Positions 8,363 to 60,138 of a DNA stretch of 64,000 nt are shown piece by piece. Source of the stretch: Diadema antillarum (lineage: Eukaryota); contig NW_027271623.1 in assembly GCF_040938485.1 (NCBI RefSeq), forward strand, positions 147,756 to 211,755. Reading direction: 5' to 3'. The notes beneath the pieces are model-generated. The model made no database searches and had not been told where the DNA came from. It saw only the letters and a program-made list of their open reading frames with translations. Position 1 is the stretch's first letter, and each line of letters opens with the position of its first letter. A program made the translations under genes and the position numbers.

Positions 8363-10269
8363 TCAACGAGTAAATTTCCCCGTCTTGCGATCTTGTCCAA
8401 ATGTGGAAAGAAAATTAATAACGTTGTTCGCGAGATAAAAAAATCGACCTGATAGTGATTGAAATATGTAAAGTCTATCTGGAGTGCAAAGAGCTATCTC
8501 ACCACTCTCGAAATCTGGTAGATGTAATACCATTGGCTTTTCTGTTTTTTTGTGTCTTGAAATCAGTGACGATATTGTGCACGTGCTCCAAATCTCTCGT
8601 GTATCGATCAATACTGACAAGACCCTCTCTGTGCTTCACCCAGGCTACAATGACCAAATCATCTCGACAAACAGCTGGGAAGGCATACCTACCCTCCTTC
8701 TTCAAGACATGCTCCTTCCCATTACCATCAAGGCACACGACAGCTGATGTGTTAGTCAGTATCAGGTGTCTCCTGGTGTAAAAGGGAAATGCTTGAAAAG
8801 GTAAATACCCATCCCACGTTTTTCCCCCGACTGCCTAACCTCCATGTAATCATATGAAATAAATATCTGGATCTTCTTGCCCGTCACATAACCACATAGA
8901 CAATTATTATCATCTTTATCTAAAGTAAGACTATAACACACATTCCTTCTTCATAACTCGCGAACGTGAAGTCAAGCTAACTGTGGAGTGTATAGTAAAA
9001 TCTTATTGTGTCCATTACGTACGACACTTCGACCACCGGACAGGAATCCAATGTCAGTGTCAGTGACATCGTTCAACACGGTACCGTTACTCGCCACCAG
9101 GGGAGAGCATGGATTCCCCCTTGACCCGATCCCTACCGTCTGGTGCACGAGTAATAACGCTCATGGCGTCTTTGCTATAGGGAGCTCTACATCTGATTGA
9201 CATCCCACGTGTAACCTTTCCGCTCTCCTAGACAAAGTTCATTGATCTTCACGTGTTTAGTGAATGAAATCTTCTGAGCTCTTTCTGTCACACCTCTCGA
9301 TGATTGGTCGTCAGGATCATCTCGTACCATAAAGCTCTTCAAGTTCTCACACAGTGTGTCGTGTGCAGACAAGGCGTCTTTCTCTAGCGGTACCTTCATA
9401 CCGTTAGTTACCAGCTCTTCCATAGCGTTCATTTGACGAATTTTTCGCCGACTCTCTTCCTTGTCGAATTTTTCCGACCGTCGTTTCACTTGACATTTCA
9501 GCACCTCTCTTCTGTCTGACAATTTTTCATGTCTTCTTTGTACGTCTTGTCGATGTCATCATTGAGCCTTCTCAGCGTGTTTTTGATTTCATTGCGTTGT
9601 GTCTCTATGAAGTCAATGTCGTTTCCAACGTTTGTTTTCTTTAATTTTGTTCTTTATCTCAACTTCTTGATATGTTTCGTTAATTTCTCCTCATGGATAG
9701 GTGTTTAATTCTTCCAGATGATGACCAGCTTGCAAGTGCTTTAGCATCCCACAAGCAATACAGATGTACTCCCGACAATGGGTACAGAAACACTCTTCAT
9801 CAGCGCTGGGGTGTTTCTTACACTTCCGTCGTCTCTTCAGCGGAACTTTTCCGGAGAGCACCTCGCTCATGGGCACTACTTTGTGGCTGAAAAGCGGTTT
9901 CCAGATAGAGTGGTCCTTATCACACGATTTACACATATATTTTTCACAGTCCTGACAATAGGACACAGCTGGCGGCTTTTCGTCCATCTCACAAACTGTG
10001 CATGTTGGACTCGTGGTTTTCACTTCGTCCACAAGATAACTCAGGGGTACGTTTGTTTGTAGCTTTCCCACATCCCCACTGGGTACGGGCGTTCCTTTCC
10101 TGCACACAGGACATGTTATAGTTTGTTGGTTGGGCTGAGTTTGAAAGATATGTTCCAGACAGTCTTTGCAGAAGGTGTGAGAGCATGCCAGTAGCTTAGG
10201 TTGGCTGAAAAGTGTCAGACATATTGAACACTCCAGATTGTGGCTGCTGATTTGATGAAACGTTGCCAT
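8363..10269 (-). pseudogene. TRIM-like paralog, degenerate. RING plus two B-boxes are intact (192 aa). The coiled coil is frameshifted, most of the beta-propeller is deleted, and the C-terminal remnant lies at 8363-8738.
   Basis: ORF 9691-10269 (MATFHQISSHNLECSICLTLF...CSHTFCKDCL...) is ~85% identical to the N-terminus of the intact paralog at 21414-23264. ORFs 9187-9522 and 8363-8738 match its coiled coil and C-terminus in shifted frames. Only ~450 bp lie between these pieces, against ~1 kb in the intact gene. Confidence 0.75.
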
Positions 10270-12084
10270 ACGGTGGTTGTCAGTCTAATAGCAATAGATA
10301 CACGTAGAAGTAAACATAAGTGTCAACATTATATTGACAGAATCATCACATGAATATTCGCCAGACAGAAAAGGGAACGTTAACAAGATTAACAAAATAA
10401 AGTTTTGGTACTTGAAATTACCGAAGAGTATACTGTATCTCTTCACGCTTTCAAATGTAAATTAAGATTATATTTACTGAGTAACTACACTATATCAGTA
10501 TAGATATCGATAAAAACAGGTATTCAGTTTTCAAGTGTTATTTACTACGTAATTATATTGTCTTTCCATTTACAATTCTTCAGTGAGTGAACTCACTACT
10601 ATATCTTACTTCTATACATCATGGTTGTGCTTCAAAACAGAAATTTGTTTCGTTGCATCTTTTCGTATGTGTATTTTGTTTTGGTCAGTTTCAAACCATT
10701 TCCGACAACCAAAATGCTATGAACTAACAAGTTTCCTTGGATACCTGTAATTCCTACAAGCTTTAATTTTCGAAGCTTTTTTTTCTTTATGTCTCTCTCT
10801 CTCTCTGATTTTTTTTTTTTGATACATCTGCAATCACATTGCACAATTACCGTTAATGGTGCATTCTTAACTGTTTATTTTAGTGAGATGTGTTTTGTGT
10901 GCGCTATTCATATTCATTCATTCGTTTTTATTGATTTCAACACGGGAGCACCCATTCATCATAGACTATTTTTCAATAAGTCCTTGCATAATACTCACAA
11001 CAATGCTCAACTTAAAAACACACACAAATTGAAAAAAAGATACACACAAAACTTTATTCTTAGCGTATTTTCTTTCGTTTTCGATTACAGATATCTTGAC
11101 GATGTAACATGAAGGGGGGGGGGGGGTTGGTACATTCTAGATGAAAAGATTTTGTGGAAGCATTGTTGATCGCAGAGGGATAACGATCTGAAAGTGGGAA
11201 CGACTTTCGTTCCCGAACACTGGACCCTCTCTATGTATTTTTCGTCTGACTCCGATTGTTGCAATATTATCCGAGATATTATACGTGTCTTTACACAAAA
11301 TCACAGCGAAAAATATAATACCACCAATTGTTGCCATGGTTTTTTGCGACTTTAAGCTTAGGGCAGAATCTAATTCCACAGATAAAGACATAAAGACATA
11401 AAAAGAAGTCGCTTCGTAAGAGGAGCACAATATCGCGAAAACTGAGTAAAATAAGGCAAAAATTAACACATTTTGTCAGTGTGTTTGTCTGAAAAATATG
11501 GCTATGGGCTTTTACACAAATCTGTTTTGTTGAGCAATGCTATCAACGTGTATTCAACTTGATTTATCGGCAGGGTACTACCTTCTTTTTTTTTCATTTT
11601 GCGAGAAGATGCTGGTATGTCTCTGAGGGAAGACCAGAGCAAATTGCATATCCCTTATACCAAATATTACCCAATGATATGTCAATGTCACTGAGATGCA
11701 TACTTTATGGAAAATAAGACTTTCATTGATCCCACGAAGGTCCCATGTCCAACTTTCAGAATATTTTATCCAGCTAGATCATTTCAAAGCTTTCAGTAAA
11801 GTAAATGACAGTATTTCTATTTTTCATTTAAACATAAGAAATATGAATTACAATTTTGATAATTTTGTTTACCCATGGCTGATTCGCATCAAACTTCGTG
11901 TCCAATTATCGGATTAAGGGAAACATGACTATCACGGAATGTTGTTGTTGTTGTTTTATAGAAAGAAAGAAGAGAGAGAAAAATGGGGCCCTATACAAAT
12001 AATTTGCCCCAGACAGCACTCAACATAAAACAGACATTATAAATCTTAGAAAAATATAAACAAGATTATCAAATATATATGTAT

Positions 12085-13100
12085 GTACCAAGTCTCCACG
12101 AGGGAGCTCATATCGTCTCCACGGGGGAGCTCATATTGTCTCCACAAAGAAGCTAATTAGGTCTCCACGAGGGAGCTCATATGATATTTATGAATACCTC
12201 AAAATCTGTCACGGAATGTTGCCTCATCTTTTACTCTCCACGGCTTTAACCTCATTGAAAATAGTAGAAAAGACAGGCTGGATGAAGGAGTAGCCATATA
12301 TTTAAAGCAAGGATTTGATTATGTTGTTCATGATCATCTTAATCGTAAGAGTGATGCAATTGAATCTCCGGTAATTGAAATTAGAATTTAAGAGAATAAA
12401 AAACATTAAGTTAGTTATTATTCATAGGCCTCCAAATCCAAATACCAATGATTTCTTTGATTTTCTACAAGTTATATGGAATACACAATCCTGTTTTCAG
12501 AAAGAGAGATTGTTATATAACGAGGGATTTCAATATAGATTCATGTAAATTCAATTGAATTTATTCCCCACAATTTTTTTTAAAGCATTATGTTAACTGG
12601 TTCTTTTCTGCCATTTATTGATAGATTAATTCGGGGACCAGTCGCACAGCCACTCTGATAGATAATTCACATGTATTTACTAATGTCATTCCATTAACTT
12701 AATCAGGGATTTTTTCTTTACCAGACATATCTGATCATTATCGTATACTTATTTCATCTCCATATAAATCTAGAAATAATAAGGAATTGACAAAAAAATA
12801 AGACTCCCAATTAATAATTTGGCTATTTTACAACACAGTTCAAATGCTGCTGACTGTACAAATGTATACACTTCACTAGATGCAAGTACTTCATAATATT
12901 ATGATAATCTTATGAAAATGTTAATTTATCATTAAGGTAAGAATATTCCGTTTGTAAAAGCGAAATATATCAAAAAAAAGACTTTCATGGGTTTCTAAGT
13001 CCTCGTTGCGTTCTATCAATCGAAAACACGACATATATCATATGGATATAATGTAAAAACTGAATATTGTCGCTTTAAATACACTTCTTATAAAAATACA
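12085..13100 (+). mobile_element. LINE 5' fragment: 5'UTR-type ~24-bp tandem repeats (12085-12185) followed by a degenerate APE endonuclease-domain coding remnant
   Basis: Four tandem CTCCACGRGGGAGCTCATAT-like units. Translation of 12280-12420 (GVAIYLKQGFDYVVHDHLNRKSDAIESPVIEIRI) resembles the APE region of ORF2 at 40231 (GGVGFYVSQTLNYQLLHEY...). Stops and frameshifts are present. Confidence 0.5.
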
Positions 13101-17789: not shown

Positions 17790-18254
17790 TTGTGTTTCTT
17801 ACACAGGGAGGATAGTTTTGGAAACTCTGTCTTATTTAACTTACCACAAACTCAGCTCTCCATGCTACAGAGGCTTCAAAATGCGGCAGCACGCATCATC
17901 ACACTATCCAAGAAGCACACTCACATCACCCCTATTTTGAGATCACTTCATTGGTTACCAGTCAAAGATCGCATTATTTTTAAGATTTTACTTTTGACTT
18001 TTCATTGCATTCAGGGCGCTGCTCCTCAGTATAACATTGACTTACTCCATAATTACATCCCTGTTAGATCTTTACGCTCATCCAACTCCGGTTCTCTGAT
18101 AATTCCAAGATTCACTACAATATGGGGCACACGTGCCTTTGGCCATGCTGCTCCCACCTTATGGAATAACCTACCTTCAGCCGTTAAAAATTGTTCTTCA
18201 TCAGACTCCTTTAAAAGCAGTCTAAAAACTCACTTGTTTAAAGCCTCAATTTGA
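17790..18254 (+). mobile_element. LINE (CR1/L2-like) ORF2 C-terminal fragment, 5'-truncated
   Basis: 154-aa ORF carrying the conserved tail ...LQRLQNAAARII...TPIL..LHWLPV..RI.FKIL...PQY...L..Y.P.R.LRS...G.L..PR....G.RAF...AP.LWN.LP......S...FKS.LKTHLF. Confidence 0.7.
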
Positions 18255-19370: not shown

Positions 19371-19734
19371 TTAAAGGGGATGGCTAGTAACCGATCAGTG
19401 GGAATCAGTGGGAATGCTGAGGGATGATTTTTCAATCCTTGTGGGATTTATTTAAGAGTACATTATATATCTACTGTTGTGTGAAAATTATTTGCTTCAG
19501 AACGGTCTCATATTCAAGTAAAGTGCAGATTAATGCCCCGTCACTGACCAGGGACGCTTACCTGGAAACATTAAACTGCACATTACTTGAATATGAGACC
19601 ATTCTGAGGCAAATAATTTTCACGCAAGAATAGATATATAATGTACTCTTAAATGAACCCCACAAGGATTGGAACAATCATCCTCCAGCATTCCCACTGA
19701 TTCCCACTGATCAGTTACTAGCCATCCCCTTTAA
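19371..19734. mobile_element. Foldback MITE, family FB-1, complete copy. ~155-bp near-perfect inverted arms, ~50-bp loop, TTAA at both ends.
   Basis: TTAAAGGGGATGGCTAGTAACCGATCAGTGGGAATCAGTGGGAATG... at the left end. Its exact reverse complement ...CATTCCCACTGATTCCCACTGATCAGTTACTAGCCATCCCCTTTAA at the right end. Confidence 0.85.
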
Positions 19735-19971
19735 TACACCATACGATCAGAGATCTGCAGTTCAAACTCCTCCTTTACAGTTATGATGTTTGAGTATTGT
19801 CAGACACATTTTCTTATGTCAGAATATTCTGAACCTCCAGTGTCAGGTCCATTATATTAACGCAGTCAAGTAATTGTTTTCATTCGAAGAAAGAAATTGT
19901 TCATCCATTTCAGTGCTGAATCTGTTTACACAAAACACGCAGTCAGCAACGCATTAGTGTTCGCTGGATGT

Positions 19972-20549
19972 TTAAAGGACAAGTTCACCTTCATAAACAT
20001 AAGGATTGAGAAAATGCAACAATATTAGTAGAACACATGAGTGAAAGTTTGAGGAAAATTGGACAATCGATGCAAAAGTTATGAATTTTTTAAATTTTTG
20101 TGTTGGAACCGCTGGATGAGGAGACTACTACAGCTTTTGAGTCATATGCGTACAACAGTATAAAGAAAATATAAAAGAAAATTCAACATATTTTCACTTT
20201 TTTTCGCATAATAAAAGAGCAATTGACTTGCCTCTTTCTAAAGGCAGGGGGAATAATATTACCCATAACATTTATCGGTAACGAGTCAGGGGAATGTGTA
20301 CTTTTTTCAAAAGATGGAATTTTGTGAAATTCTCTTTATATTTTCCTTATATTGTTGTACGCATGTAACATCTAAGTTATTCATACACTGCAGTAGTTTT
20401 CTCATCCAGCGGGTACTGCACAAAAACTTCAAAAATTCATAACTTTTGAACGGATTGTCTGATTTTCCTCAAACTTTCAATGATGTGTTCTACTAATATT
20501 GCTACATTCTCTCAATCCTTATGTTTATGAAGGTGAACTTGTCCTTTAA
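19972..20549. mobile_element. Foldback MITE, family FB-2, copy a. ~220-bp inverted arms; termini TTAAAGG...CCTTTAA.
   Basis: Arms 19972-20190 and 20330-20549 are reverse complements. Homologous to 61885-62828 and to the fragment at 34440-34575. Confidence 0.8.
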
Positions 20550-27215: not shown

Positions 27216-27266
<51 letters not shown>

Positions 27267-36300: not shown

Positions 36301-36347
<47 letters not shown>

Positions 36348-44998: not shown

Positions 44999-45002
<4 letters not shown>

Positions 45003-45040
<38 letters not shown>

Positions 45041-45046
45041 TTGTGT
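45003..45046. repeat. (GT)n microsatellite, with (GA)n nearby at 45125-45170
   Basis: Direct reading. Confidence 0.9.
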
Positions 45047-46528: not shown

Positions 46529-46663
46529 AAAAAAAACAGTTTATTTTGGATTAAAGGGGAACCGGATGAAAGAAGGCCAGTGGCTTAAAGTGCTTAATGG
46601 TCATACACAGGTGGTCGTGGGAGCGTGTCAATTCCTTCAGGCACGAGACTGAAAGTGACCCTA

Positions 46664-49600
46664 TCACCATCCGAATCGCTGTGGGGGTTGAGACTGTCGC
46701 GTGCTGCGACGGGGGCTAATTGTATCCTTGGGATTAGTCTGCGTTCCGGCCTGACGTTTCCCTGGATCGCCTCCATCTTTCAACTTCCGAGCTAAATTCG
46801 CGATCCATGGTGGAACATCGGTGCTGGTATATGGTTTCAGGCGGTCATGATGCAACAATTTAGTCCTTCCCGCCTGTTTGATTCGAATTTCAAAGTTCAG
46901 GTCACTTAATTTTCTAATCACTACGTAGGGACCGACCCATTTACATGGATTTAGCTTTGGTGAAAGTCCCTTTTGTTTCGTGGAGTCTAGAAAATACACT
47001 AAGTCACCTGCTGCATAGTTATTTACCGTCAGTCTCGCATCATAGTTCTTTTTCTGTCTTTCCTTCGCTTCGCTTATGTGTTCCCTCGCTATGCGCGAAG
47101 CTTCCGTCATGGTTGCAACGATGTCGGCTGCGTGATCGTGCGGGGCATTGCGTTCGTGGTCGTTTTCTGGACGATCAATTCCGAGTGAAACTTCGATCGG
47201 CGTGCGTGCCTCCCTTCCCAACATGAGAAAATTGGGGGAGAAGCCGGTTGTCTCGTGTATGGTGCCCCGGTACGCAGATGTTAATAATGATAGATTTTCG
47301 TCCCAGTTCTGTTGTTTCTTGTCTACATATGAGGCAATCATGTCAACCAAAGTCCTATTGAAACGCTCGATCATCCCATTTGATGACGGATGGTACGGGG
47401 AGGTCCTGGTTTTAGATATTTCCAGTAATTTGCATATGTCCTGAAAGAGTGCAGATTCGAATGTCCTTCCCTGGTCAGTATGTATTTCCAGGGGTGTCCC
47501 GAAACGAGCTATGAACTCCCTTACGACCACGTCCGCGACTGTGGTGGCCGTTTGGTCGGGTATGGCGTATGCCTCTATCCATTTCGTAAAGGTGTCCCCG
47601 ACTACAAGGACAAAGCGATTCCCATTGTTGCTTATAGGGAATGGTCCCATGATGTCCATGGCGATGCGGTCCATTGGGGCACCCGAAGTATATTCACCAA
47701 GAGGCGCCCGCGGTTTCGACGACGGCCTTTTTCTCGCTCCGCAAGTCACACAGTTTGCGAGAAAAATACGAAGTGTCTCTTTCATGTTCAGCCAGTAAAA
47801 ACTACGTTGTAGTTTGCTAAGAGTTTTCTTCAGTCCTAAGTGCCCAGATAAGGTCGATGCATGGCTTGATTTCATTACACGATCACGAAGTTTCTCTGGC
47901 ACAACGAGCTGCAGTCCCGCTGTGAGCTTACTGTTCGTGTAATTTCGCTTATATAACAGTCCATCGACCATTTGCAATTGATTCCATAACAGCCACAAAT
48001 TGCGAATTGCTGGGCTCTTGTCGTGGACACGGCTACGAGTTGGTCGCTCTGTAGACTCTGTCAACCACCCGTAGATGATTCCGATGTCGGGGTCCTGTTT
48101 CTGCATTGCGATCAGTTCTGCACGGTCGAGGTTGCCAAGAAGAAGTCTCTGCGGCCCGGAAAAATTTCCAGCGACGGCGTCTGTGTCGGAGACGCAGGGC
48201 AGGTCATTGTTCTGTGCAACGTCAACAGCGTTGTCGCGATCATGTTGTGCCTTACTACCACGTGACTTTGACGCACTCTTCGCACTAAACATTCTCAAAA
48301 CTACATTCGGGGCTGGCCATAATCCCCGTCTCAAAAACTGCGTTGCGTCCCATACATTAACTAGATACACGTGTACTCCAAATAGGCACATTAATCCACA
48401 TAATACCAAAGATCGCGCGTCCGTGATCGACAATGAAATGAGAAATAGGACAAAACAAAGGGCGATGACTGCATGAAAAATTAGACCAGCACATCTTCTC
48501 AACATGTCAGGGCGTGTAGAAGTAGAAGTCTCATGAGTTTGGCTTTCGCGCTCTTCCTTCGGAGGAGTGTGACACACTTCCACTCTTTTTGCTGAGAGAG
48601 GAACAGTGTCGTCCTCGTCAAAGAAGTCGACCCACTCACGATGTCGTCGTCGGCATGTAGAACATCCACCACAAGGTAGCTGCTCGAGTATCAAAGTCCC
48701 ATCAAAACAGTCACATGAATCGGGGTCACACGACACGCGCGATAGCGAGTCTGCATTGCCATGCTTCTTCCCCTCTCGATGCTCGATGGCGAAATCGAAT
48801 TGCGATAAGATCTCTAGCCATCGGGCCATTTGGTCAGTTGGTTCACGGAAGGACATAATCCAGCGAAGAGAGGAGTGGTCAGTTCGAATAAGGAATTTCC
48901 GCCCAAATAGAAAGTGACGAAAATGGCGGACGAAGGCGACCACGGCCAGGAGCTCCCTCCGTGTTGTGCAATATCTTCGCTGAGTTCGTGTCAGAGAACG
49001 ACTAGCAAACGCAATAGAACGCTCAATCTCCTTCTGGGCGGACTCGTCCCACTGCATTTGAGATAGCACTGCTCCTATGCCGTCTGCGGAAGCGTCTGTG
49101 TCCAAGATGAATGTACCGACGTCGTTCGGGTAGGCCATTACGCTGTCACCCATGAGCGCTTGCTTCAACTGTTCGAACCCAGACTGGCACTCGTCGTCCC
49201 ATTTGAAGCGGACTGATTTCCCCAGTAGCTTGTTGAGTGGGGATGCTATAGTGGAAAATCCCCGAATGAAGCGGCGATAATATGAGCAAAGGCCCAGAAA
49301 AGATCTCACATCACTCACCGATGACGGGGTCGGCCAGTCTGCAATTCGACGTACCTTCTCTGGATCGGGCTTTATTCCCGCTTCGCTGACGACATGTCCG
49401 AGATATGCCACTTCGCTACGAAAAAGCTCGCACTTGCTCGGTTTAAGTTTCAGTCCAGCCGAGCTCAGCCTAACAAGGACCTCGTCGAGACGTCGTATGT
49501 GTTCGTCGAACGTCGAGCCCATGACGATGACGTCGTCCAGATACAAAATTAATGTTTTCCATTGTAGTCCTTTCATGATAAGCTCCATTGCACGCTCGAA

Positions 49601-50920
49601 TATGCCAGGCGCGTTGCACAAACCAAACGGCATAGTAACATACTCATAGTGACCAGTCCGTGTGCTGAACGCCGTTTTCTGTCGATCCTCCTCCTTTATC
49701 TCTATTTGCCAGTAACCGGACTGGAGGTCGAGAGTGGAGAAAAGTTTCGCCCCACCCAAACAGTCCAGGCAGTCTTCGATTAATGGCAAGGGATAAGCGT
49801 CTTTCTTGGTAACATCGTTTAGCTTGCGGTAGTCTACACATTGTCGCGTAGATCCATCGCGTTTTCGCACATATACGAGAGGACTCGACCACGGACTCGT
49901 CGATTCGCGAATGATACCAGCCTTAAGTTGCTCGTCGATAATCTTCTCCTCCTCCCCCTCGAAGGCACGAGGCGGACGGCGTGGTCGTTGCTTAATTGGC
50001 TGAGCATCACCCGTGTCGATAGTATGCTGGAAGACTGATGTGCGGCCGTGGTCAGATGGCGAAGAAGCAAACACTTTAAGATGTTTTTCGATTAAATTCG
50101 AGAGCTGCTCGCATTCTTCATCGCTGAGACCAATGATGCTGCGATCATAAAGCTCTTTTACTCCATCAGGCCAACTGCTGGCGTCGATATTGTCAGAAAC
50201 AGTCAGTTTGTCAATGCGGGCTGACGGGGAACGTTCGTGGTCGACGATGTCGGGCACCACACTTACGGACTCGATGCTAGCGATGCGTGTGCCCGCGAAC
50301 AACTGAATGTCATCAAAGTTGGTATTCGCCACACGAATTGGTATGTCGATGTCTCGCCGGCAGACATCGACAAGGCAGTGGGCGACGTGCACAGGTATCT
50401 CAACTCCTCTAATTGGCTCTACAATGGCATAGGACGCTTGGCGTGTGAACTCAGTGTCAATCGTCTTTCCGGCAACAATGCACTCTGAATTTGCCGGTAC
50501 CACTATATCGCTCTTCACATAAACATTAACAACGTTGACAATAGCATTATCTCCATCATATTCAATCGGAAATAATTGATCACCGATGCGAAGACCGCGT
50601 CTAGCCTCCAGGCTGCAATTGAAATGATGCAAAAAGTCGAATCCCAGGAGACCATCATCGGCAACATCAGCTACATATGCATTCCACTCAAAAGGCTTAT
50701 CCCCCAGTCTCACACAAATTTTAACGCATCCATAAACAGAGAGAAATCCATTGTCCGCTGCTTGAAGCTGAATATTTTCAACTAGCTGCTGCATAACTGG
50801 GCGCGAATGGTGGGGCATACGTTCATACAATTTTAATGAAATAACAGTGACCGCTGCACCAGAGTCGACCAACAGCTTAGCGTTCACGCCACTAACATCA
50901 GCTTTAACAAAGGCTGACAT
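46664..50920 (-). CDS. pol: Ty3/gypsy Pol polyprotein (1418 aa): aspartic protease, RT, RNase H, integrase (HHCC zinc finger, DDE core, GPY/F C-terminal module)
   Basis: PR: LLVDSGAAVTVIS. RT: …YLDDVIVMG…. RNase H: …DTDASADGIGAVLSQ…. IN: H-x4-H…C-x2-C (HASTLSGHLGLKKT…CVTCGARK), D…D…E (IAMDIMGPFP / VLVVGDTFTKW… / IHTDQGRTFES), and …CKWVGPYVV…. Confidence 0.92.
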   Translation of the reverse strand: MSAFVKADVSGVNAKLLVDSGAAVTVISLKLYERMPHHSRPVMQQLVENIQLQAADNGFLSVYGCVKICVRLGDKPFEWNAYVADVADDGLLGFDFLHHFNCSLEARRGLRIGDQLFPIEYDGDNAIVNVVNVYVKSDIVVPANSECIVAGKTIDTEFTRQASYAIVEPIRGVEIPVHVAHCLVDVCRRDIDIPIRVANTNFDDIQLFAGTRIASIESVSVVPDIVDHERSPSARIDKLTVSDNIDASSWPDGVKELYDRSIIGLSDEECEQLSNLIEKHLKVFASSPSDHGRTSVFQHTIDTGDAQPIKQRPRRPPRAFEGEEEKIIDEQLKAGIIRESTSPWSSPLVYVRKRDGSTRQCVDYRKLNDVTKKDAYPLPLIEDCLDCLGGAKLFSTLDLQSGYWQIEIKEEDRQKTAFSTRTGHYEYVTMPFGLCNAPGIFERAMELIMKGLQWKTLILYLDDVIVMGSTFDEHIRRLDEVLVRLSSAGLKLKPSKCELFRSEVAYLGHVVSEAGIKPDPEKVRRIADWPTPSSVSDVRSFLGLCSYYRRFIRGFSTIASPLNKLLGKSVRFKWDDECQSGFEQLKQALMGDSVMAYPNDVGTFILDTDASADGIGAVLSQMQWDESAQKEIERSIAFASRSLTRTQRRYCTTRRELLAVVAFVRHFRHFLFGRKFLIRTDHSSLRWIMSFREPTDQMARWLEILSQFDFAIEHREGKKHGNADSLSRVSCDPDSCDCFDGTLILEQLPCGGCSTCRRRHREWVDFFDEDDTVPLSAKRVEVCHTPPKEERESQTHETSTSTRPDMLRRCAGLIFHAVIALCFVLFLISLSITDARSLVLCGLMCLFGVHVYLVNVWDATQFLRRGLWPAPNVVLRMFSAKSASKSRGSKAQHDRDNAVDVAQNNDLPCVSDTDAVAGNFSGPQRLLLGNLDRAELIAMQKQDPDIGIIYGWLTESTERPTRSRVHDKSPAIRNLWLLWNQLQMVDGLLYKRNYTNSKLTAGLQLVVPEKLRDRVMKSSHASTLSGHLGLKKTLSKLQRSFYWLNMKETLRIFLANCVTCGARKRPSSKPRAPLGEYTSGAPMDRIAMDIMGPFPISNNGNRFVLVVGDTFTKWIEAYAIPDQTATTVADVVVREFIARFGTPLEIHTDQGRTFESALFQDICKLLEISKTRTSPYHPSSNGMIERFNRTLVDMIASYVDKKQQNWDENLSLLTSAYRGTIHETTGFSPNFLMLGREARTPIEVSLGIDRPENDHERNAPHDHAADIVATMTEASRIAREHISEAKERQKKNYDARLTVNNYAAGDLVYFLDSTKQKGLSPKLNPCKWVGPYVVIRKLSDLNFEIRIKQAGRTKLLHHDRLKPYTSTDVPPWIANLARKLKDGGDPGKRQAGTQTNPKDTISPRRSTRQSQPPQRFGW

Positions 50921-51003
50921 ACCTGAATGTCTGTTGATTCTTATTATCCTATTCGGCGCAGTCGAGTGTCGGGCCGATCCCTGGTCGATGAGGTCGGCCC
51001 GCT

Positions 51004-52173
51004 CTAGTTTCCCTGTTGTGTGGATGGCTGGTGACTGGGAGGTGGGGGCTGCTCATGCTCAGGCGACCACGGCTGCTGAGGCACAAACGGTGGTGGGGGT
51101 GGTGCCCACGCTGGCTCCGGTTGAGGTTGTTGACGGGGTTGTTGCCGGTGTTGTTGCCACTGTTGCTGCCACGGTTGTTGTCCTCGATATGCTGTTTGTC
51201 CCCAGGCATCCCGTGCAAACCGTTCATTCTGACGACAATTTCTGGCTATGTGTCCCAGTTTCTGGCAATTATAGCATCGCACCGGTGCTCGACCACCGTT
51301 TCCTCCTCGCTGCCCACATGGTGCTTTTTGCCGATTGCTGCCCACATCACTAGCCTTGTCTTCCGGTAATAATCCGGCAAACTTGTGTTCTATTGCGTCC
51401 ATCACGCGTTTTTCGAAAGAAGTGAGGCGCTCCTCAATAACATCGGTCGCCGTCGTCGTTCCCGTGATTGACCTCACAGGCCTCCTCACGGACTCCTCTC
51501 TCAGGTTCATGTACCTCTCCGCTATTTCCATAGCAACCTGCAATGTTTTGGGCTCATGCATCCCAATGGCTAGAGTCATTCCTCCATCGCATAGCCCTCT
51601 GAGGAAATGTCGCACGGCAATGGTTTCGGTGGTTGCCGGGTCCGCGGTTGGATAACCGAATTTTGACAGCCGGCGGATGTCGCCGGCGTACTCTGAGATG
51701 GGTTCTCTCGTTCCTAGGCGGCGCGCCTCAAGTTGGGTGATGTACGGTGTCGCGCTCTTTCTCGATGAGAATCTCTCTGATAGCGCCTTTATGAGTTTGA
51801 CATCGCTTTCGGTGGCATCAGCTGGTAATTGTTGGAAGGCGAAGTCGGCCGCGTCCCCTCGCAACGAAGCTAGCAGCCGAAATCGCCTCTCCCGTGAGTC
51901 CCATTTACACGCGTCGCTGAGATTGTTAAAAGCAGACAAAAAGCTCTCCCATGAACGTGTCCCGTCGAACAATTCCTGGTTTGGAATTTGAACACGCCGC
52001 CGCCTTTGGTCGTCAGGTAGTATCGAAGCACCGGCATCTGTTTCGTCGTCGGTCGATTCTGCCCCCTCTTCCACGCTGACCGTGGATTTTTGAAGGTCGC
52101 GCCTCGCCTGATCCAACTCCTCACGGAGTTGCTTCAGTTCACGCTGGAGATCCGCCTTTCTCTTTGGAGGCAT
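51004..52173 (-). CDS. gag: Gag (389 aa) with a CCHC zinc knuckle and a Gln/Pro-rich C-terminus
   Basis: CYNCQKLGHIARNC. Basic coiled-coil N-terminus MPPKRKADLQRELKQLREELDQARRDL. Stop lies 84 bp upstream of the pol start, in a different frame, so frameshifting or readthrough is expected. Confidence 0.85.
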   Translation of the reverse strand: MPPKRKADLQRELKQLREELDQARRDLQKSTVSVEEGAESTDDETDAGASILPDDQRRRRVQIPNQELFDGTRSWESFLSAFNNLSDACKWDSRERRFRLLASLRGDAADFAFQQLPADATESDVKLIKALSERFSSRKSATPYITQLEARRLGTREPISEYAGDIRRLSKFGYPTADPATTETIAVRHFLRGLCDGGMTLAIGMHEPKTLQVAMEIAERYMNLREESVRRPVRSITGTTTATDVIEERLTSFEKRVMDAIEHKFAGLLPEDKASDVGSNRQKAPCGQRGGNGGRAPVRCYNCQKLGHIARNCRQNERFARDAWGQTAYRGQQPWQQQWQQHRQQPRQQPQPEPAWAPPPPPFVPQQPWSPEHEQPPPPSHQPSTQQGN

Positions 52174-52369
52174 GTCGATTTTTGTTGATGTCGTTGAGGG
52201 AACAGATATAAAACTTGCTATGTCAGGCGCGTGTTGAAGTCACTATATCCCACTCCTGACACCAGTGTTGCGGGTGGGGGTGGTGCCCACGCTGGCCATT
52301 GTCCGCTGCTTGAAGCTGAATATTTTCAACTAGCTGCTGCATAACTGGGCGCGAATGGTGGGGCATACA

Positions 52370-53307
52370 GTGTTGCGGGAAAATGGGTGTTGTTGCACTG
52401 ACTACTGGGGGTGGCAGGATGTTTACCGAGCGGGAATGATACCCCCAATAGAAAGGCACATTTTCCGCAATGGAAGAGAGTTAATTGGTAAGATATAAGG
52501 TGCATCAGGTACATTCACACAATTCATTCACCATCACGATGAGAGGGCTGCAACATAGTTCAATCGGAAGAGCGTATGTTCCGGGCATAAACTGTTATTT
52601 TATTGGCAGATATACTTCACGTTGACAAACGTACATGATCAAAATGAGTTATGACAGGACTTGCCTAATTACTCTAACAGCATGACACGACGACTTTCGC
52701 TAAAGTCCTTAGATTCAAGAAGTCGCTCCTCGTAAGAAGTAAAGTTCTCTCTATTCACGAAGTCCCACAAAGTTAAGTCCCTTGCTTTGACAGATCAATC
52801 GATATTTATACCTCTATGCTCAATGTATTTCTTTAAACTTACAAAGGTATTCGGGCAATTCAAATTATGCGGAAACTATGAGGAACATAGAATATTTGGG
52901 GCGTATACCTTCATATTAGGTAAAACATAGAATTCTTTAGTGGACTATACACAACATAAAATTCCAAACGATGTAATGCGAGGAATGGACAGAATTTACG
53001 GAATGTGCAAGGAATGTGTATTTTATCAGAGATTCAGTCTAGAACGGAAACCCACTTGTTTAGGAATGTGCCCTACTTGGTACTTAATGAGGTAGAGTTA
53101 TGCCAAATATCCTAGGAGGAGAAACCCTGGAAAGTGTCAACATGGAGGGGTGTGCTTGGCACGTGCGGAATGTAAACATTGACCCCACGAGAATTCGCTG
53201 CGGAGGGTGAGTGGTTTTCATCTACAACAAGGCACTTATTGTTCTACATGGTCAGTGCAGGGAGGTGGGTCCCTGGTCAGTGGTTTTCTGCTTATCCATA
53301 TTCGTAA

Positions 53308-53313
<6 letters not shown>
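52370..53313 (-). repeat. LTR; the 5' LTR of the minus-strand gypsy element
   Basis: Near-identical to 36353-37284. The outer flank is (TA)n at 53314-53354. Confidence 0.85.
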
Positions 53314-53358: not shown

Positions 53359-53774
53359 GAGCATATAATATTCTATAAAAAATCAACAAAGACAAGAAAA
53401 TTACATATCATCACAATACTGAGTATCATTGAATGGTATTTGGCAATATAAAAGGAAATAAGTTGTTACAGCATTCAATACAAAACGATGAAATGGATGC
53501 CTGCTAAATTATAAACTGATGGGAGTATTGGATCCCATGATCTAATTATGCAAGTTCATTCTTTTTTTTTTTTTGAACATGAATTCCTAAATTGTTACAA
53601 TGAGCACTATGTATTATGTCGCTTTGAATTGAGTGAAGTGCCGAATCAACTGAGAGAAAAGAGAGGTCATTTGTACCAATGTGTACATGAGCTACAGTGT
53701 AATTAGGAACTGGCTTATTACCCTACATGGACGTCTAAATAGGCACTGAATTGATCAGTGTTTTAGTAGTAGCC

Positions 53775-53900
53775 ATGATAAAAAATTCATGGGCGTATAT
53801 ACTCAAGCAGTATTCGAAACCTAAGACCTCCTGATCACCGGACAGGCGTCATCTCCATTAGACCACCGAGCTTTCGCCCAACAGCAAGTGTTGGTTCTAA
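53775..53900 (-). mobile_element. tRNA-derived SINE copy, first unit of a ~285-bp tandem duplication
   Basis: …GTATTCGAAACCTAAGACCTCCTGATCACCGGACAGGCGTCATCTCC… is homologous to 7790-7905. The preceding 80 bp (…CACTGAATTGATCAGTGTTTTAGTAGTAGCCATGATAAA…) is repeated at 54010-54060. Confidence 0.6.
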
Positions 53901-54054
53901 TCCTTATAGCATGCAGCGGATACTGCGTAATTATTCAAATTCATGAAATTCTTCCGTTGAGATGTTTTCTGTGCAACTGATTGACAGATTGCCCTACATC
54001 AACGTAAACAAGCACTGAATTGATCAATGTTTTAGTAGTAGCCATGATAAACAA

Positions 54055-54160
54055 ATCATGGGCATACATACTCGAGGAGGATTCGAACCTAAGACCTCCT
54101 GATCTCCGGACAGGCGTCATCTTCAGTAGACCACCGAATAAGGATTGGAACCAACACATG
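54055..54160 (-). mobile_element. tRNA-derived SINE copy, second tandem unit
   Basis: …GGATTCGAACCTAAGACCTCCTGATCTCCGGACAGGCGTCATCTTC…. Confidence 0.6.
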
Positions 54161-55350: not shown

Positions 55351-56982
55351 TCAAATTTCACATTTCGTCGCAACAAATATGTACACTCTATCTGCAGTGG
55401 AGAAAGCTATCTCACCGCTCTCAAATTCCTGTAGATGGCATTCACTTCCAAGTACAAGATTTTGAATTTTGAAATCAGAGACGATATCGTACATGTGCTC
55501 CAAATCTTTCGTGTATCGATCGATACTGATGGTATCCTCAATGTAATCTACCCAGGCTACAATGACCGAATCATCTCGACAAACAGCTGGCCAGGCTGCA
55601 ATACCCTCCTTCCTTAAGACATTCTCCTTCTTCCCATTACTATTAATGCACATGACTTCTAATACCATTGGCACTTCATTTACTATGAAATTCCTCGAAG
55701 TGTGGAAGGAGAAAAGAGTGAAAGGAAAAAAAGCTTCATTGTCAAATGTTATTTCCCTGACTGGCTCACCACCCTGTGGGGTGAATACCTGGATCTGAGG
55801 GCATGTAGGGGATATTGAATAACACACGTAGATATTATCATCTTTATCCACAGCTAGAGCAGCAATATCTTCTTTATCGCAACTCATCGTCTCGAACTCA
55901 GTGTCGAGTTTTTCCCACTGTGGAGTGTACATGGAAATCTCATTTTCTGAATTGCGTATGACACTTCGACCATCCGACAGGAATCGAAAATCAGAGATAC
56001 CGACATCCTTCAGCACGGTTTGCTGTGTCTCACCATCAGGGGAGAAAATGTGGATTCCTCCTTCATCCGAACCCACCGCCATCTTACCGTCTGGTGCACA
56101 AATCATACACTCTATGTTGTCTTTGCTCGGGAGCTCCATTACGTCTACTTTGACATCCCACGAGCAAGTTTTCAGCTCTCCAATGTAATGTTCATTAACC
56201 TTCACTTGTCTACTAAATGAAATCTTCTCCGCTCGCTCTGTCACACCTCGCGGTGATTGGTCGTCAGGATCATCTCGTCCAAGAAGGCTCTCCAGGTTCT
56301 CGCACAGCGTGTCGTGCACAAACAAAGCATCTTTCTCCAGCGGTATCTTCGTGCCGTTGGTAACCAATTCTTCCACAGCGTTCATGTGACTGACTGTTTG
56401 GCGACTCTCTTCCGTCATAGTTTGTAATTCCTTCTCGAATTTTTCAGACAATCGCTTCACTTGAGATTTCAGGGCTTCTCTTCTGTCTAACAAAAGCTGC
56501 ATGCTCTCCTCGTAAGTCTTCTCGATGTCATCATTAAGCTTTCTTAGCATTCTTGTTACTTCATTGCGTTGTGTCTCTATGAACTCGATATGGTTTTCAA
56601 TGGTTGTTTTCTTTGATTTTGTTTTTTCTTTCAACTTCTTGATATTTTCAATTAATTTCTTTTCATGGATGACTGCCTCTTCCAGCTTGTGTCCCTCTTG
56701 CAAATGCTTCAGCATCCCGCATTTATTGCACGTGTACTCTCGGCAATTGGGGCAGAAACAGTCTTCATCCTCATTAGGGTGTTTCTTACATTTCCGTCGC
56801 CTCTTGATTGGAACTTTTCCTGAGAGCACCTCGCTCATGGCTACTATTGAGTGGATGGAGAATGGTGTCCAGGTAGAGTGGCTTTTCTCACAGGCTTTAC
56901 ACATATATTTCCCACAGTCCTGACAGTAGGACACGGCTGGCGGTTTTTCCTCCGTCTTACAAACCGTGCACGTTGGACTCCG
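55351..56982 (-). pseudogene. TRIM-like paralog 3, distal part (B-box1, B-box2, coiled coil, beta-propeller). The 527-aa ORF is intact but is separated from its RING exon by transposon insertions.
   Basis: ORF 55351-56934 extends in frame up to 56982 (…RSPTCTVCKTEEKPPAVSYCQDCGKYMC…). It is ~60-70% identical to the corresponding region of 21414-23264. Confidence 0.75.
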
Positions 56983-56984
56983 GG

Positions 56985-58919
56985 GGTGGTATTCTGTAAG
57001 GGCGATCCTTATTTCGATCCTAGGAGCGCGCGTAGGACAGAAAATAGGATACCCTTAGGACAGGCAAAATCGGTATTCTGTAAGCCTGTCCTAAGCCTAT
57101 CCTAGGACAGTCATTTATAAATAATGAATATTAATGAGGAAAGACAGGACACGCCCGGCGCAGTATCTATAAGCCAATCATCTGGCTAATTTTACGCAAT
57201 GCGCGCCCAAGATCTACATTGCTCAAACATGCGCTTCACGCAGCTCTTACTGTGCGAGGAGTTAAAATGTATTGTCAGTCTAATTTTACAGTTAAGAATA
57301 CAATTTTGATTATCAAAGCTTTAGCACGCACTTAGCCCACCATAATAGATGTGACCTTACGAGTTCCATTAATTAGCATTTAAAGTTTTTGCAGAAATTA
57401 GCTCAAATTTTGAACTTTTGGAGGATGTTGGGGTAAACTGGGATATCATCACTGCATGCCAAACTTCGCCCTTAATTCAAAGTTATTATAAAATATATAA
57501 GATTTTCTTAAATAAATATAAATAATAATAATGATAATAATAGATGCACTCACAGACACACACACACATGCGCTCACATTATTTTATAAATATGATCGAT
57601 ATGCTTGTAATGATAATGTCTTGCTTATAGTTAGGACCTACTGTTTGTCCCACTTAAACCAAACCAATGTTCCACTTCTCCCAGGAAAAAAAACCAATTA
57701 TAACACAAATATGAGACTTATACGAATATAGCGTAGCAACCCGTTATATGGCTAGCATCAAAAGTCTTTTGGTCCGATACATGTGTGCCCGGCCATTCTA
57801 GATATTAGAAAGTTATTCGAGAAACTTCATCAAATCACAATTTTTGTCCCTCTTAATTCACCCCGCTAGCTCTCCCCTATCTTTATGGTAGTATAGACTT
57901 ACATGCAGGGCAATGATAACAGAATAAATAAACAGAATAAATAAAGGAGATTACTGATAGATTAAACAAAGATATAAACATGGAGCTACTATAGCTCCAT
58001 GATATCCTTGTATACGGGTGCTGTTCGCTATTCCGAAGGTTCGTTAATCCGAAACACACAAATTCTCCATACCTAGAGGTTCGTTAATCCGAAAATGAAA
58101 AAGGGTTCGTTAATCCGAATATTTGTGGCGTTATTTCGAAGGTTCGTTATTCTGAAGATTTGTTAATTCGAAAATGAAATTTGGAATAACGAACCTTCGG
58201 AATAACGAATCTTCAGACTGGAGCATTCGGAATAACGAACCTTCGGAATAACGAGCTGTAACCGTATAAACACGTAAGTTCACTACATTTTGGAAAAAAA
58301 AAATGTTAACCCATGCACATGGACTGTTAGGTCACCGGGTTGCGTCACACACTATACGTACGTCTTAACAATAATGTGAGCGTATGGATCGTTGCGTTAC
58401 TAATACTTTACATGGCCGGCGGAACACAAAGAAATGCATAAGGTGTCATCACTTTGGGCCCCCACAATTTTTTTTAACCCGGAAGTACGTAAGTGGCACT
58501 AAATAGAAATAGATAGAGATCTTGAAGTGTGCGGAACGCGGTAAGGTTATGTTTTTCCAATGTAGACTTTTTTTTATTCGCTTGTCAGCTGAAGAAACCC
58601 AGAAATGGAAAGGGTGAGAGGAGCTGAGAACCTTTTTTTATTTTTTTTTTCTTGTTAGCTCATGAAACCCGGAAGTAGGCCCCCACGCTTTTAAAAACGT
58701 TCAGTCGGCCCTGCTTTATTCTTCACGCGACCTAGAAGCACACTGCGTACGTTTCTTTTTCTTTGGTTACTAGATCTTCATAGCAACGACTTCGAGGGTC
58801 ACGTAATGTGGGCGGCGAAGGTAGGCTACTTGCACCGCGTCCGCATGACGTTCGGGCAGACGTTGAGCATAATAATAATGATAACAATAATGACAATAAT
58901 GATAATAATAATAATAATG

Positions 58920-58960
<41 letters not shown>

Positions 58961-59600
58961 AATAATAACAATAACAATGATAATATTAATAATGATGATA
59001 ATTATTATCATTATTACAATATTAATTATAATTATAATAATAGCTTTTGTTGTTATTGTGTACATAATGTACTTTTTATTTATTTTGTGCCGAATAAAAT
59101 GAAATGTGAATTGAATTGAAAATGGCGAACAACAAACAAATAAACACATACCAGCTAGATAAAGAATACAACTGTTTCGAACATAATAGACTGCAGTTTT
59201 AGAATCCTCAGTATGAAAGGGACAGATAACTCTGTTATACGATTCATGTATCTATTTTCTTGTTCATGAACATACAAAATAAGAGACAGTGGGTCGTCAG
59301 TAGGCCTATATACGCAATAGCCCGGCATAATCGCCAGAGAAAGATTGCCTAGAGGCTATCCTTATTTTTGCTCCTAAACTTGATCCTACTTGTGCTTACA
59401 GAATACCACTTATCTTAAGATCTCATTAACATCTAATTACATCTAATTAACATATCAAGTTACGCCCCTATCCTAAACTGGGAAAGAAATAAGGATCCCT
59501 GACGTCACTATCCTATTTCTCCTCCTACGCGCGGTGTTACAGAATACCAATCGCGTATTTAGGAGCGAGAGCTGTCCTAGGATCCTTACAGAATACCACC
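56985..59600. mobile_element. Non-autonomous TIR (DNA-transposon-like) element, 2.6 kb, with 17-bp perfect TIRs GGTGGTATTCTGTAAGG, inserted in the TRIM coding sequence
   Basis: Left TIR 56985-57001; its reverse complement at 59584-59600. Sub-terminal GGTATTCTGTAAG / CCTAGGA repeats on both sides. No transposase ORF. Internal inverted GGTTCGTTAATCCGAA / TTCGGAATAACGAACC repeats at 58020-58260. Internal (AAT)n at 58862-59040. Confidence 0.75.
58862..59040. repeat. (AAT)n / (AATAAT)n microsatellite inside the TIR element
   Basis: Direct reading. It generates the spurious poly-N, poly-I and poly-L ORFs on both strands. Confidence 0.95.
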
Positions 59601-59603
59601 CCT

Positions 59604-59732
59604 GGGGGGCATTTCATGAAGCATTTTGTCTGACAACTTGTCGGACAAATTTGCTTTCAGCCAATCAGATGCAAGGATTTCGGTAGCTTTTAACAGTTTG
59701 TCAGACAAAATATCTGACAAAAGGCTTCATGA
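59604..59732. mobile_element. Palindromic MITE (~129 bp) with TIR GGGGGGCATTTCATGAAGCATTTTG
   Basis: GGGGGGCATTTCATGAAGC…GCTTCATGAAATGCCCCCC. Confidence 0.7.
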
Positions 59733-59733
59733 A

Positions 59734-59882
59734 ATGCCCCCCTGTGGGGCATTTCATGAAGCATTTTGGTCGGATATTTTTTTGACAGACTGTTACAAGC
59801 TATTGAAAACCTTGCATATGATTGGCTGAGAGCCCAATTTGTCCGACAACTTTCGAACAAAATGCTTCATGAAATGCCCCCC
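59734..59882. mobile_element. Second, tandem copy of the same MITE family (~148 bp)
   Basis: GTGGGGCATTTCATGAAGCATTTTGG…AAAATGCTTCATGAAATGCCCCCC. Confidence 0.7.
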
Positions 59883-59883
59883 A

Positions 59884-60138
59884 GGTTTTCACTTCGTCTA
59901 CGAGAGAACGCAGGGGTATGTTTGTTTGTAACTTACTCACACCTCCACTGGGTACGGGCGTTCCTTTCCTGCACACAGGGCATGTTATAGTTTGTTCGTC
60001 GGGCTGAGTTTGAAAGATACGTCCCAGACAGTCCTTGCAGAAGGTGTGAGAACATGTCAGTGATTTAGGTTGGTTGAAAAGTGTCAGACAAATAGGGCAC
60101 TCCAGATTCTGGCTGCTGATTTGATGAAACGTTGCCAT
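59884..60138 (-). pseudogene. TRIM-like paralog 3, orphaned 5' coding segment (RING finger, 85 aa up to …LVDEVKT)
   Basis: MATFHQISSQNLECPICLTLFNQPKSLTCSHTFCKDCLGRIFQTQPDEQTITCPVCRKGTPVPSGGVSKLQTNIPLRSLVDEVKT, then the reading frame runs into the MITE terminus. In the intact paralog the next residues are KSPTCTVCE, which here resume at 56982. Confidence 0.8.

Follow-up and report, generated by a model that had tools for sequence, protein, structure and literature searches.

For the expansion of innate immune genes in animals that lack adaptive immunity, sea urchins serve as a reference case, mainly because of their TLR, NLR and SRCR families. Among the TRIM proteins, TRIM56 combines a RING, B-boxes, a coiled coil and a C-terminal NHL-like region and acts as an antiviral, innate-signalling E3 ligase. 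The filamin/ABP280 Ig-like domain is present in TRIM2, TRIM3 and TRIM71 and absent from TRIM32, i.e., it is not universal in the TRIM-NHL subfamily. For finTRIM and TRIM5, positive selection is documented. Canonical vertebrate TRIM-NHL genes belong to the conserved "group 1", while the clustered and fast-evolving "group 2" carries a SPRY domain (PMC2533329). Here, we analyse a stretch of 64,000 nucleotides (nt) from the sea urchin Diadema antillarum (contig NW_027271623.1 of assembly GCF_040938485.1, forward-strand positions 147,756 to 211,755; called the window in the following, with positions counted from its first letter), which carries three copies of a TRIM-like gene with a C-terminal propeller of NHL type.

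With regard to group 2 (TRIM5alpha, finTRIMs), these genes are alike in their species-specific tandem clusters with pseudogenes, in the conserved RING/B-box/coiled-coil core and in the variability of surface loops of the C-terminal recognition domain (PMC2533329; PMC2657112). They differ from group 2 in that the recognition domain is an NHL-type propeller instead of PRY/SPRY (B30.2) and in that both B-boxes are present, whereas group 2 has B-box2 only. That is, an NHL-type TRIM family behaves here like the vertebrate group 2. We consider the window to be part of a tandem cluster of an echinoid-specific, expanded TRIM E3 family that evolves by birth and death and provides a germline repertoire of binding specificities, and we assign this reading a probability of roughly 75%. 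Lineage-specific invertebrate TRIM expansions are as such of a known kind. Our literature search found nothing specific on Diadema TRIMs or echinoderm TRIM-NHL expansions and no published analysis of the structure or evolution of the sea-urchin TRIM complement.

Copies were sought by tblastn with the 616-amino-acid (aa) protein of the intact copy, by self-blastn and by applying a family hidden Markov model (HMM) to six-frame translations of the window. All three methods yield exactly three paralogs, arranged head to tail on the minus strand, and the family HMM shows no fourth or further degenerate copy in the window. The copies and the domains of the intact one are as follows.

8456-10269, minus strand: copy 1, full-length pseudogene (tblastn 10269-8456, aa 1-612, in four frame pieces)
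21414-23264, minus strand: copy 2, intact single-exon coding sequence (CDS) of 616 aa plus stop (open reading frame (ORF), translation, tblastn 23264-21417 at 100%)
23097-23225, minus strand: RING of copy 2 (Pfam)
22863-23003, minus strand: B-box1 of copy 2 (Pfam)
22704-22817, minus strand: B-box2 of copy 2 (Pfam)
22380-22703, minus strand: coiled coil of copy 2 (AlphaFold2 model)
22245-22379, minus strand: helical linker of copy 2 (AlphaFold2 model)
21429-22244, minus strand: six-bladed NHL-like propeller of copy 2 (AlphaFold2, Foldseek against PDB, profile search)
59886-60138, minus strand: copy 3, 5' part, codons 1-84 (RING), open (tblastn 60138-59884, aa 1-85, 91% identity to copy 2)
55351-56981, minus strand: copy 3, 3' part, codon ~85 to the end (B-boxes, coiled coil, propeller), a 527-aa ORF

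The initial annotation had proposed three minus-strand paralogs, one of them intact with 616 aa, one split by transposons and one frameshifted with most of its beta-propeller lost. The positions above bear out the first three of these points, i.e., the strand and number, the intact copy 2 and the split copy 3; with regard to copy 1, the frameshifts stand while the loss of the propeller does not (see below).

From N to C terminus, the encoded protein comprises a RING, B-box1, B-box2, a coiled coil and the NHL-like propeller; a filamin domain is absent. The RING of copy 2 is found by Pfam (E 7e-10), with 39.1 bits for zf-RING_UBOX (cutoff 25.2) and 31.9 bits for zf-C3HC4 (cutoff 21), and its zinc ligands C14, C17, C29, H31, C34, C37, C53 and C56 are invariant in 30 homologues. 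Two stretches match zf-B_box, with 24.4 bits in copy 2 (cutoff 24.1), 36.6 in copy 1 and 33.7 in copy 3; the ligands of B-box1 (C90, C93, C105, C108, C113, C116, H120, H129) and of B-box2 (C150, H153, C162, C165, C170, C173, H178, H183) are nearly invariant in the same homologues. Thus, the RING and B-box matches of the 616-aa protein lie above the Pfam thresholds, and the lack of such matches, which the initial annotation had named as a refuting outcome, does not occur. An AlphaFold2 model of copy 2 built on the 30 homologues (mean per-residue confidence (pLDDT) 77.9) shows both B-boxes, an unbroken helix at residues 188-295, helices at 302-338 and a beta-rich domain at 340-612, for which block pLDDT values are mostly about 90. 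A coiled coil after the B-boxes is also indicated by the alignment with the RING/B-box/coiled-coil (RBCC) region of KAP1/TRIM28 and TRIM25, which reaches residue 292, and weakly by Pfam TRIM_CC (E 0.18, copy 3). Sequence matches in PDB comprise the RING/B-box of TRIM56, TRIM2, TRIM3 and TRIM72 and the RBCC of KAP1, with the TRIM56 RING region on top (5jw7_B, E 1.2e-13). The RING/B-box/coiled-coil assignment made from the letters of the stretch is therefore confirmed by the RING with its invariant zinc ligands, the two B-boxes and the predicted helix 188-295.

The ORF of copy 2 remains open for 26 further codons upstream, i.e., to 23342. Every homologue starts at MATFHQ, and a splice-acceptor motif lies between the upstream ATG and the MATFHQ ATG. 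Copy 2 is intact and presumably functional.

The C-terminal domain had been described as a short six-bladed NHL-like region and as not being PRY/SPRY, and both statements agree with our results. Strands assigned by DSSP on the model give six blades of four strands each, and neither SPRY nor PRY is matched in Pfam at E up to 1. When the domain is compared to PDB with Foldseek, the NHL domains of TRIM2, Brat, Mei-P26, Thin, TRIM71 and NHL-2 are at or near the top with probability 1.0, target-normalised TM-scores of 0.63-0.74 (Mei-P26 0.74, root mean square deviation 2.8 Å) and identities of 12-16%. A family profile of 22 propeller sequences, searched against PDB, finds the TRIM3 NHL domain with E 5.4e-16 and Thin, TRIM2, TRIM71 and Brat with 2e-13 to 5e-12. 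Because Foldseek ranks NHL domains at or near the top and because of these profile scores, the predicted domain is a divergent homologue of the NHL propeller. The SGL propellers (SMP-30/gluconolactonase/LRE-like, squid diisopropylfluorophosphatase (DFPase)) are six-bladed as well and show weak sequence similarity. Here, Pfam SGL (PF08450) scores 18.1 bits, i.e., below its cutoff of 26.3, and covers residues 435-491 only; the family profile matches DFPase-type propellers with E 1e-7, far behind the NHL domains. NHL is thus the better assignment by both profile and fold, and the TRIM context suggests no enzymatic role.

Among known TRIMs, the TRIM-NHL proteins (TRIM2, TRIM3, TRIM32, TRIM71/LIN-41, Brat, Mei-P26, Thin, NHL-2) provide the best structural matches and the best profile matches among natural proteins. 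In contrast to them, the urchin protein has no filamin/Ig domain: Pfam gives no filamin match, and the model shows a helical linker instead of an Ig fold at residues 296-340. Since the filamin domain is not universal in the subfamily, a protein without it is still admissible as TRIM-NHL. Furthermore, the urchin propeller is too divergent for the Pfam NHL model and has the low identity to solved NHL domains given above, and the Diadema family differs from canonical TRIM-NHL by one hypervariable propeller face and acidic propellers. The filamin-less domain order appears to be like that of TRIM56, and some echinoid relatives are named TRIM56-like by NCBI; TRIM56 is single-copy in vertebrates, whereas the urchin family is expanded. 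NCBI names of the urchin genes are scattered in general (TRIM2-, TRIM3-, TRIM45-, TRIM56-, TRIM59-, TRIM71- and Midline-1-like), so there is no clear ortholog.

The first 91 matches of the 616-aa protein comprise about 51 clusters from D. setosum and about 40 from D. antillarum at 55-73% identity, followed by relatives from Lytechinus and Strongylocentrotus at about 40%. With the propeller alone, 280 representatives (50% clustering) are found at E up to 1e-3 among 1.84 billion cluster representatives, and all named relatives that we checked are echinoids. Seven D. setosum paralogs with single-exon CDS lie within 280 kb of chromosome OZ188189.1 (33.63-33.90 Mb); the family HMM finds no degenerate copies within 10 kb on either side of them. 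Neighbor joining places all three copies of the window within the Diadema radiation, each on a long branch, with copies 1 and 2 forming a pair and copy 3 placed elsewhere. Some annotated relatives (P0001-P0003, P0108) are 823-1031 aa long, and one of them includes a reverse-transcriptase domain; in these gene models, a TRIM paralog has likely been fused with an adjacent copy or a transposon. The family as seen in these sequences is best described as an echinoid-specific, tandem-clustered TRIM expansion. A lineage-specific and rapidly evolving expansion had been suspected before, and the about 90 clusters from two Diadema species, the echinoid-only named relatives and a ratio of nonsynonymous to synonymous substitution rates (dN/dS) that rises from 0.25 in the RING and B-boxes to 0.64 in one class of propeller loops support it.

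To describe where the paralogs vary, we used the model's DSSP strands for an a priori partition of the propeller into three classes, namely strands, A-B/C-D loops and D-A/B-C loops. Successive loops of a beta-meander blade point to opposite faces, such that each loop class marks one face. For dN/dS, 9 intact genes were compared in 36 pairs; entropy was computed over 82 diadematid paralogs.

RING and B-boxes: mean entropy 0.80 bits, dN/dS 0.25
Coiled coil: mean entropy 0.84 bits, dN/dS 0.31
Propeller strands: mean entropy 0.90 bits, dN/dS 0.45
A-B/C-D loops: mean entropy 0.77 bits, dN/dS 0.37
D-A/B-C loops: mean entropy 1.80 bits, dN/dS 0.64

The entropy of the two loop classes differs strongly (D-A/B-C vs. 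A-B/C-D, Mann-Whitney p = 4e-10). Among the 26 sites above 2.5 bits, 17 are located in D-A/B-C loops, 6 in adjacent strand residues and none in the opposite loops. Twelve variable clusters follow in succession with exactly two strands between neighbours, i.e., each of the six blades has hypervariable residues within its D-A and B-C loops or adjacent to them. By the topology of the predicted beta-meander, they would share one face of the propeller. Conservation prevails in the strands, the opposite loops, the RING and the B-boxes.

The cluster itself evolves by tandem duplication at the DNA level, with subsequent birth and death of copies. For the proteins, we propose the following scheme, which draws on knowledge of the TRIM family for its biochemical steps. 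In each protein, the coiled coil would form the antiparallel dimer typical of TRIMs, the RING would recruit an E2 enzyme and the propeller would select the target of ubiquitination. From the pattern of variation, the paralogs may constitute a germline repertoire of ligases with diversified binding specificities. This repertoire would most plausibly serve intracellular defence or stress surveillance, convergent with the vertebrate TRIM-SPRY families. A more specific version is tentative and, in our view, possible yet somewhat doubtful: diadematid urchins, and perhaps echinoids as a whole, would encode about 100 intracellular E3 ligases whose NHL-type propeller carries a hypervariable ligand surface on one face, i.e., a restriction-factor or sensor system of independent origin from the vertebrate TRIM5/finTRIM B30.2 families that functions in a similar way.

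The same data could also be read in a more conservative way, namely that the genes encode housekeeping or developmental TRIM-NHL regulators (like Brat, LIN-41 or TRIM2/3) with RNA or cytoskeletal partners and that their variability reflects relaxed constraint. This would fit the closest solved folds, which are RNA-binding NHL domains, the dN/dS values below 1 in every structural class and the pseudogenes in the cluster, which indicate that many copies are dispensable. Variability is not diffuse, however: in every one of the six blades, only one of the two alternating loop sets is affected, and the opposite loops are as conserved as the RING. Brat, LIN-41, Mei-P26 and NHL-2 bind RNA through an electropositive NHL face, while the propellers are acidic here, the isoelectric point (pI) being 4.4-4.7 for the three copies of the window and 5.7 in the median of the family; since the pI of a whole domain is a crude proxy for one face, this argues weakly for protein rather than RNA ligands. 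In addition, canonical TRIM-NHL genes are few, strictly conserved and one-to-one orthologous members of group 1 (PMC2533329), whereas the two Diadema species hold about 90 paralog clusters in tandem arrangement. Altogether, we consider a housekeeping or developmental role rather unlikely.

The preferred reading, an expanded family under birth and death, relates directly to the different states of the three copies. Their DNA identity is 78% between copies 1 and 2, 73.6% between 2 and 3 and 72.7% between 1 and 3 (self-blastn), with synonymous distances (dS) of 0.38-0.62. Tandem near-repeats are a common cause of misassembly, and the initial annotation had named an assembly artefact of one gene as a possible explanation of the three loci. 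Uncollapsed haplotypes or a misassembled single gene have next to no chance here, since haplotypes do not diverge by 22-27% in DNA or by such dS values; each copy furthermore carries different lesions and different transposon insertions, and the flanks differ too. The divergence of 22-27% therefore rules out that the copies are assembly duplicates. Because the dS values are as large as the distance to one D. setosum paralog, the duplications that gave rise to the window copies are old.

In copy 1, the first 192 codons are open (RING and both B-boxes) and are followed by frameshifts and stops. At least 10 of its indels shift the frame, and four stops are found, at codons 204, 400, 439 and 484 in the register of copy 2. 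Still, the family HMM recovers its positions 401-440, 494-587 and 574-612 from the propeller DNA. Since propeller-coding DNA is thus present almost to the end, copy 1 is not truncated and is an old, decayed full-length pseudogene.

Copy 3 shows the opposite picture. Its 3' part aligns with aa 82-610 of copy 2 at 60% identity (tblastn 56994-55375), and the joined halves can be read through for about 625 codons without meeting a stop. Compared to copy 2, no indel shifts the frame, as each has a length divisible by three, and for the RING and B-box region dN/dS vs. the other copies amounts to 0.2-0.27. The two parts are separated in the RING-to-B-box linker by the following block, which is the only lesion of this copy.

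56982-59885: insertion of 2.9 kb at codon 85 (junction alignment, inverted repeats, border sequences)
56980-57001 and 59584-59605: 22-nt terminal inverted repeats, 95% complementary, of a 2.6-kb non-coding element in the insertion
59601-59629 and 59857-59885: perfect 29-nt inverted repeats of short units resembling miniature inverted-repeat transposable elements (MITEs), abutting the 2.6-kb element
58869-59042: (ATA)n microsatellite inside the insertion (tandem repeat search)

No target-site duplication was identified for the insertion. Its inverted-repeat elements at codon 85 account for the split that had been attributed to transposons. We also considered that copy 3 is still functional, i.e., that the 2.9-kb block is spliced out as a new intron and the array holds two working genes, as its open halves, in-frame indels and low dN/dS would allow. 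The borders of the insertion read TGGGG... and ...CCCCC and not GT...AG, and the nearest cryptic donor (GAA/GTGAAA) and acceptor (TTACAG/), as judged by eye, would break the frame. Moreover, the perfect 29-nt terminal repeats suggest a recent insertion, and recency alone explains the intact frame. A spliced, working copy 3 is thus unlikely. Instead, its sequence is best explained by purifying selection during most of its history and subsequent interruption by transposons; given the open joined frame and the in-frame indels, the insertion is either recent or tolerated.

Similarity among the paralogs decreases from 5' to 3', with dS of 0.25-0.33 for codons 1-85 and 0.5-0.8 for codons 86-187. In the regions 59884-60268 and 23010-23387, the upstream flank of copies 3 and 2 is 84-87% identical compared to 73.6% in the rest of the CDS. 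Either gene conversion of the 5' end or extra constraint there may be the cause.

With regard to the mode of duplication, the sequences around the genes are informative.

23265-24088, minus strand: upstream flank of copy 2, three contiguous segments (self-blastn, splice motif, conserved element)
60139-63285, minus strand: upstream flank of copy 3, the same three segments split by insertions (self-blastn)
23394-23658, minus strand: conserved non-coding element, candidate 5' untranslated region (5'UTR) exon or promoter (shared with copy 3 and D. setosum paralogs)
222-6452: block A, non-coding, duplicated as block B (self-blastn, 77-91%)
24818-28810: block B, with the upstream flank of copy 2 on one side and the 3' side of copy 3 on the other (self-blastn)

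A shared upstream flank of copies 2 and 3 had been reported, and self-blastn recovers it as three pairs of segments at 78-86% identity (23267-23387/60149-60268, 23394-23658/61653-61922 and 23669-24088/62863-63285). It contains a conserved non-coding element of about 170 nt, which is located 0.2 kb upstream of copy 2, 1.5 kb upstream of copy 3 and 2.2-4.7 kb upstream of the D. setosum paralogs; by self-blastn, this element is absent from copy 1. In copy 2, a 3' splice-site-like motif, ttcttttgcctgtag, ends 15 nt before the ATG, and a polypyrimidine tract with YAG is found 12-20 nt before the ATG in 10/10 genes (window 23265-23282, 10270-10290 and 60139-60160; about 9975-10000 in the seven D. 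setosum loci L001-L007). The genes are thus intronless, as they had been called, with regard to their CDS only. Given the conserved motif and element, it is likely that the first exon is non-coding and that the 5'UTR contains an intron whose length varies; candidate GT sites for the 5' donor of this putative intron are not conserved between copies 2 and 3.

The previously noticed similarity of 1-6450 and 24790-28810 likewise holds, i.e., blocks A and B align at 222-2734/24818-27203 (77%), 5893-6353/27547-28000 (83%) and 6341-6452/28701-28810 (91%). Block A has an internal duplication of 0.8 kb (1953-2727 vs. 5016-5716), and the extra piece of block B (27995-28673) is a dispersed repeat that is also found in D. 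setosum. The blocks were examined for coding potential and are treated as non-coding, as translated matches occur in several frames on both strands. The suggestion that the duplication unit extends beyond the genes is plausible insofar as the blocks diverge like the genes (77%); on the other hand, the phase of such a unit cannot be fixed, and such a block is missing on the 3' side of copy 2. The similarity of 7781-7904 to 53769-54137 was also examined as a sign of colinear units 1 and 3 and rejected, since it stems from a repeat resembling a tRNA-derived short interspersed nuclear element (SINE).

The single-exon CDS in 10/10 genes examined, the end of similarity between copies at the stop codon and the abundance of reverse-transcriptase-bearing elements nearby raise the question whether the copies are processed retrocopies, i.e., whether the family grew by retroposition. 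Against this, copies 2 and 3 have about 0.8 kb in common upstream of the ATG, of which a conserved non-coding element is part, and the 3' splice-site motif in 10/10 genes points to a retained intron. In the 1.5 kb that follow the stop, neither copy 2 nor copy 3 shows 10 or more consecutive A. Furthermore, all copies have the same strand and a head-to-tail order, and intergenic blocks are duplicated as well. We therefore consider growth by retroposition very unlikely. Because of the shared upstream sequence, the head-to-tail order, the duplicated blocks and the missing poly(A), the sequence data favour tandem duplication at the DNA level; an ancient retrocopy may nevertheless have been the founder of the whole family.

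Several observations weigh against our reading of the window. First, Pfam NHL (PF01436) matches no single sequence at E up to 1. Second, the assignment of the variable sites to one face derives from DSSP strands of a predicted model and from blade topology, not from coordinates. Third, a class-level dN/dS above 1 was not found in the variable loops (0.64 for D-A/B-C). The ratio pN/pS is 1.03 at 30 hypervariable sites and 0.47 in the rest of the propeller, and positive selection at the hypervariable sites is suggested, but the sites were picked for their variability such that this comparison is circular; relaxed constraint alone could yield the variation pattern. Fourth, the best relatives of the window protein are 72-73% identical, with none above 73% in the two annotated Diadema genomes. 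Fifth, no duplicated block is found 3' of copy 2 and similarity among the 3'UTRs is not detectable, so the history of duplication is not simple. Finally, an immune or stress-surveillance role is plausible by analogy only: it is suggested because TRIM45-, TRIM71-, TRIM33- and TRIM56-like sea-urchin genes are induced in stressed phagocytes and because S. purpuratus has 140 TRIM-annotated genes (PMC13043383).

The remainder of the window has a eukaryotic composition (GC content 0.29-0.51) and carries many transposon fragments, among them the following elements.

36337-53313, minus strand: Ty3/gypsy long terminal repeat (LTR) retrotransposon between copies 2 and 3 (LTRs 36337-37284 and 52365-53313, 99.6% identical)
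51004-52173, minus strand: gag of the Ty3/gypsy element, with zinc knuckle
46664-50920, minus strand: pol of the Ty3/gypsy element, with protease, reverse transcriptase (RT), RNase H and integrase
40231-43362, plus strand: long interspersed nuclear element (LINE) nested in the Ty3/gypsy element, ORF with apurinic endonuclease (APE) and RT
19972-20549, 61885-62828 and 34453-34573: foldback/MITE-like family 1, long inverted arms (self-blastn)
3177-3487 and 19371-19735: foldback/MITE-like family 2, 90-93% identical to copies in the D. setosum loci L002 and L004
7810-7882, 18877-18949 and 54068-54140, minus strand: Rfam tRNA matches just above the gathering score, inside a dispersed repeat

The Ty3/gypsy element is young and accounts for most of the 32-kb gap between copies 2 and 3. 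Its borders lie in a (TA)n tract, in which target-site duplications are ambiguous. The foldback element at 61885-62828, which is related to 19972-20549, breaks the upstream flank of copy 3. RT fragments are found at 29.5 kb and 32.8-33.5 kb (32778-33479); the latter adjoins 1.9 copies of a 78-nt tandem unit (33737-33885, 95%) of degenerate telomere-like AACCCT/TAACCC sequence. ARAGORN predicts no tRNA genes in the window, and the dispersed repeat with the Rfam tRNA matches is probably a tRNA-derived SINE family. Its copy at 7781-7904 matches 53769-53894 and 54038-54137 and is 95% identical to a D. setosum copy near a TRIM paralog (L003, 15621-15744); in general, some dispersed repeats of the window are 90-95% identical to D. 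setosum copies. Two ORFs, 6865-7182 (minus strand) and 17790-18254 (plus strand), share 47% aa identity over 100 residues. The 154-aa ORF of this pair has no Pfam match, and both probably encode an unclassified repeat-encoded protein.

For annotation, the array is to be recorded as three genes, of which the first is a pseudogene, the second is likely functional and the third is disrupted by transposons. Diadema annotations already hold these genes as unnamed or arbitrarily named predictions, and names such as TRIM45-like or TRIM71-like on relatives do not reflect orthology. If the more specific version of our reading is correct, the window would show birth and death directly, in that one gene works, one has decayed and one was struck by a transposon only recently. 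Beyond the locus, the family shows that the part which diversifies in a large TRIM expansion can be a propeller of NHL type, whereas in vertebrates NHL marks a conserved developmental class. The hypervariability of one face is the part worth following up: if it is true that this face binds pathogen or damage-associated proteins, the family would be a convergent counterpart of the TRIM-SPRY restriction factors. Diadema is known for mass mortalities, and in that case these paralogs would be candidate genes for disease susceptibility in Diadema.

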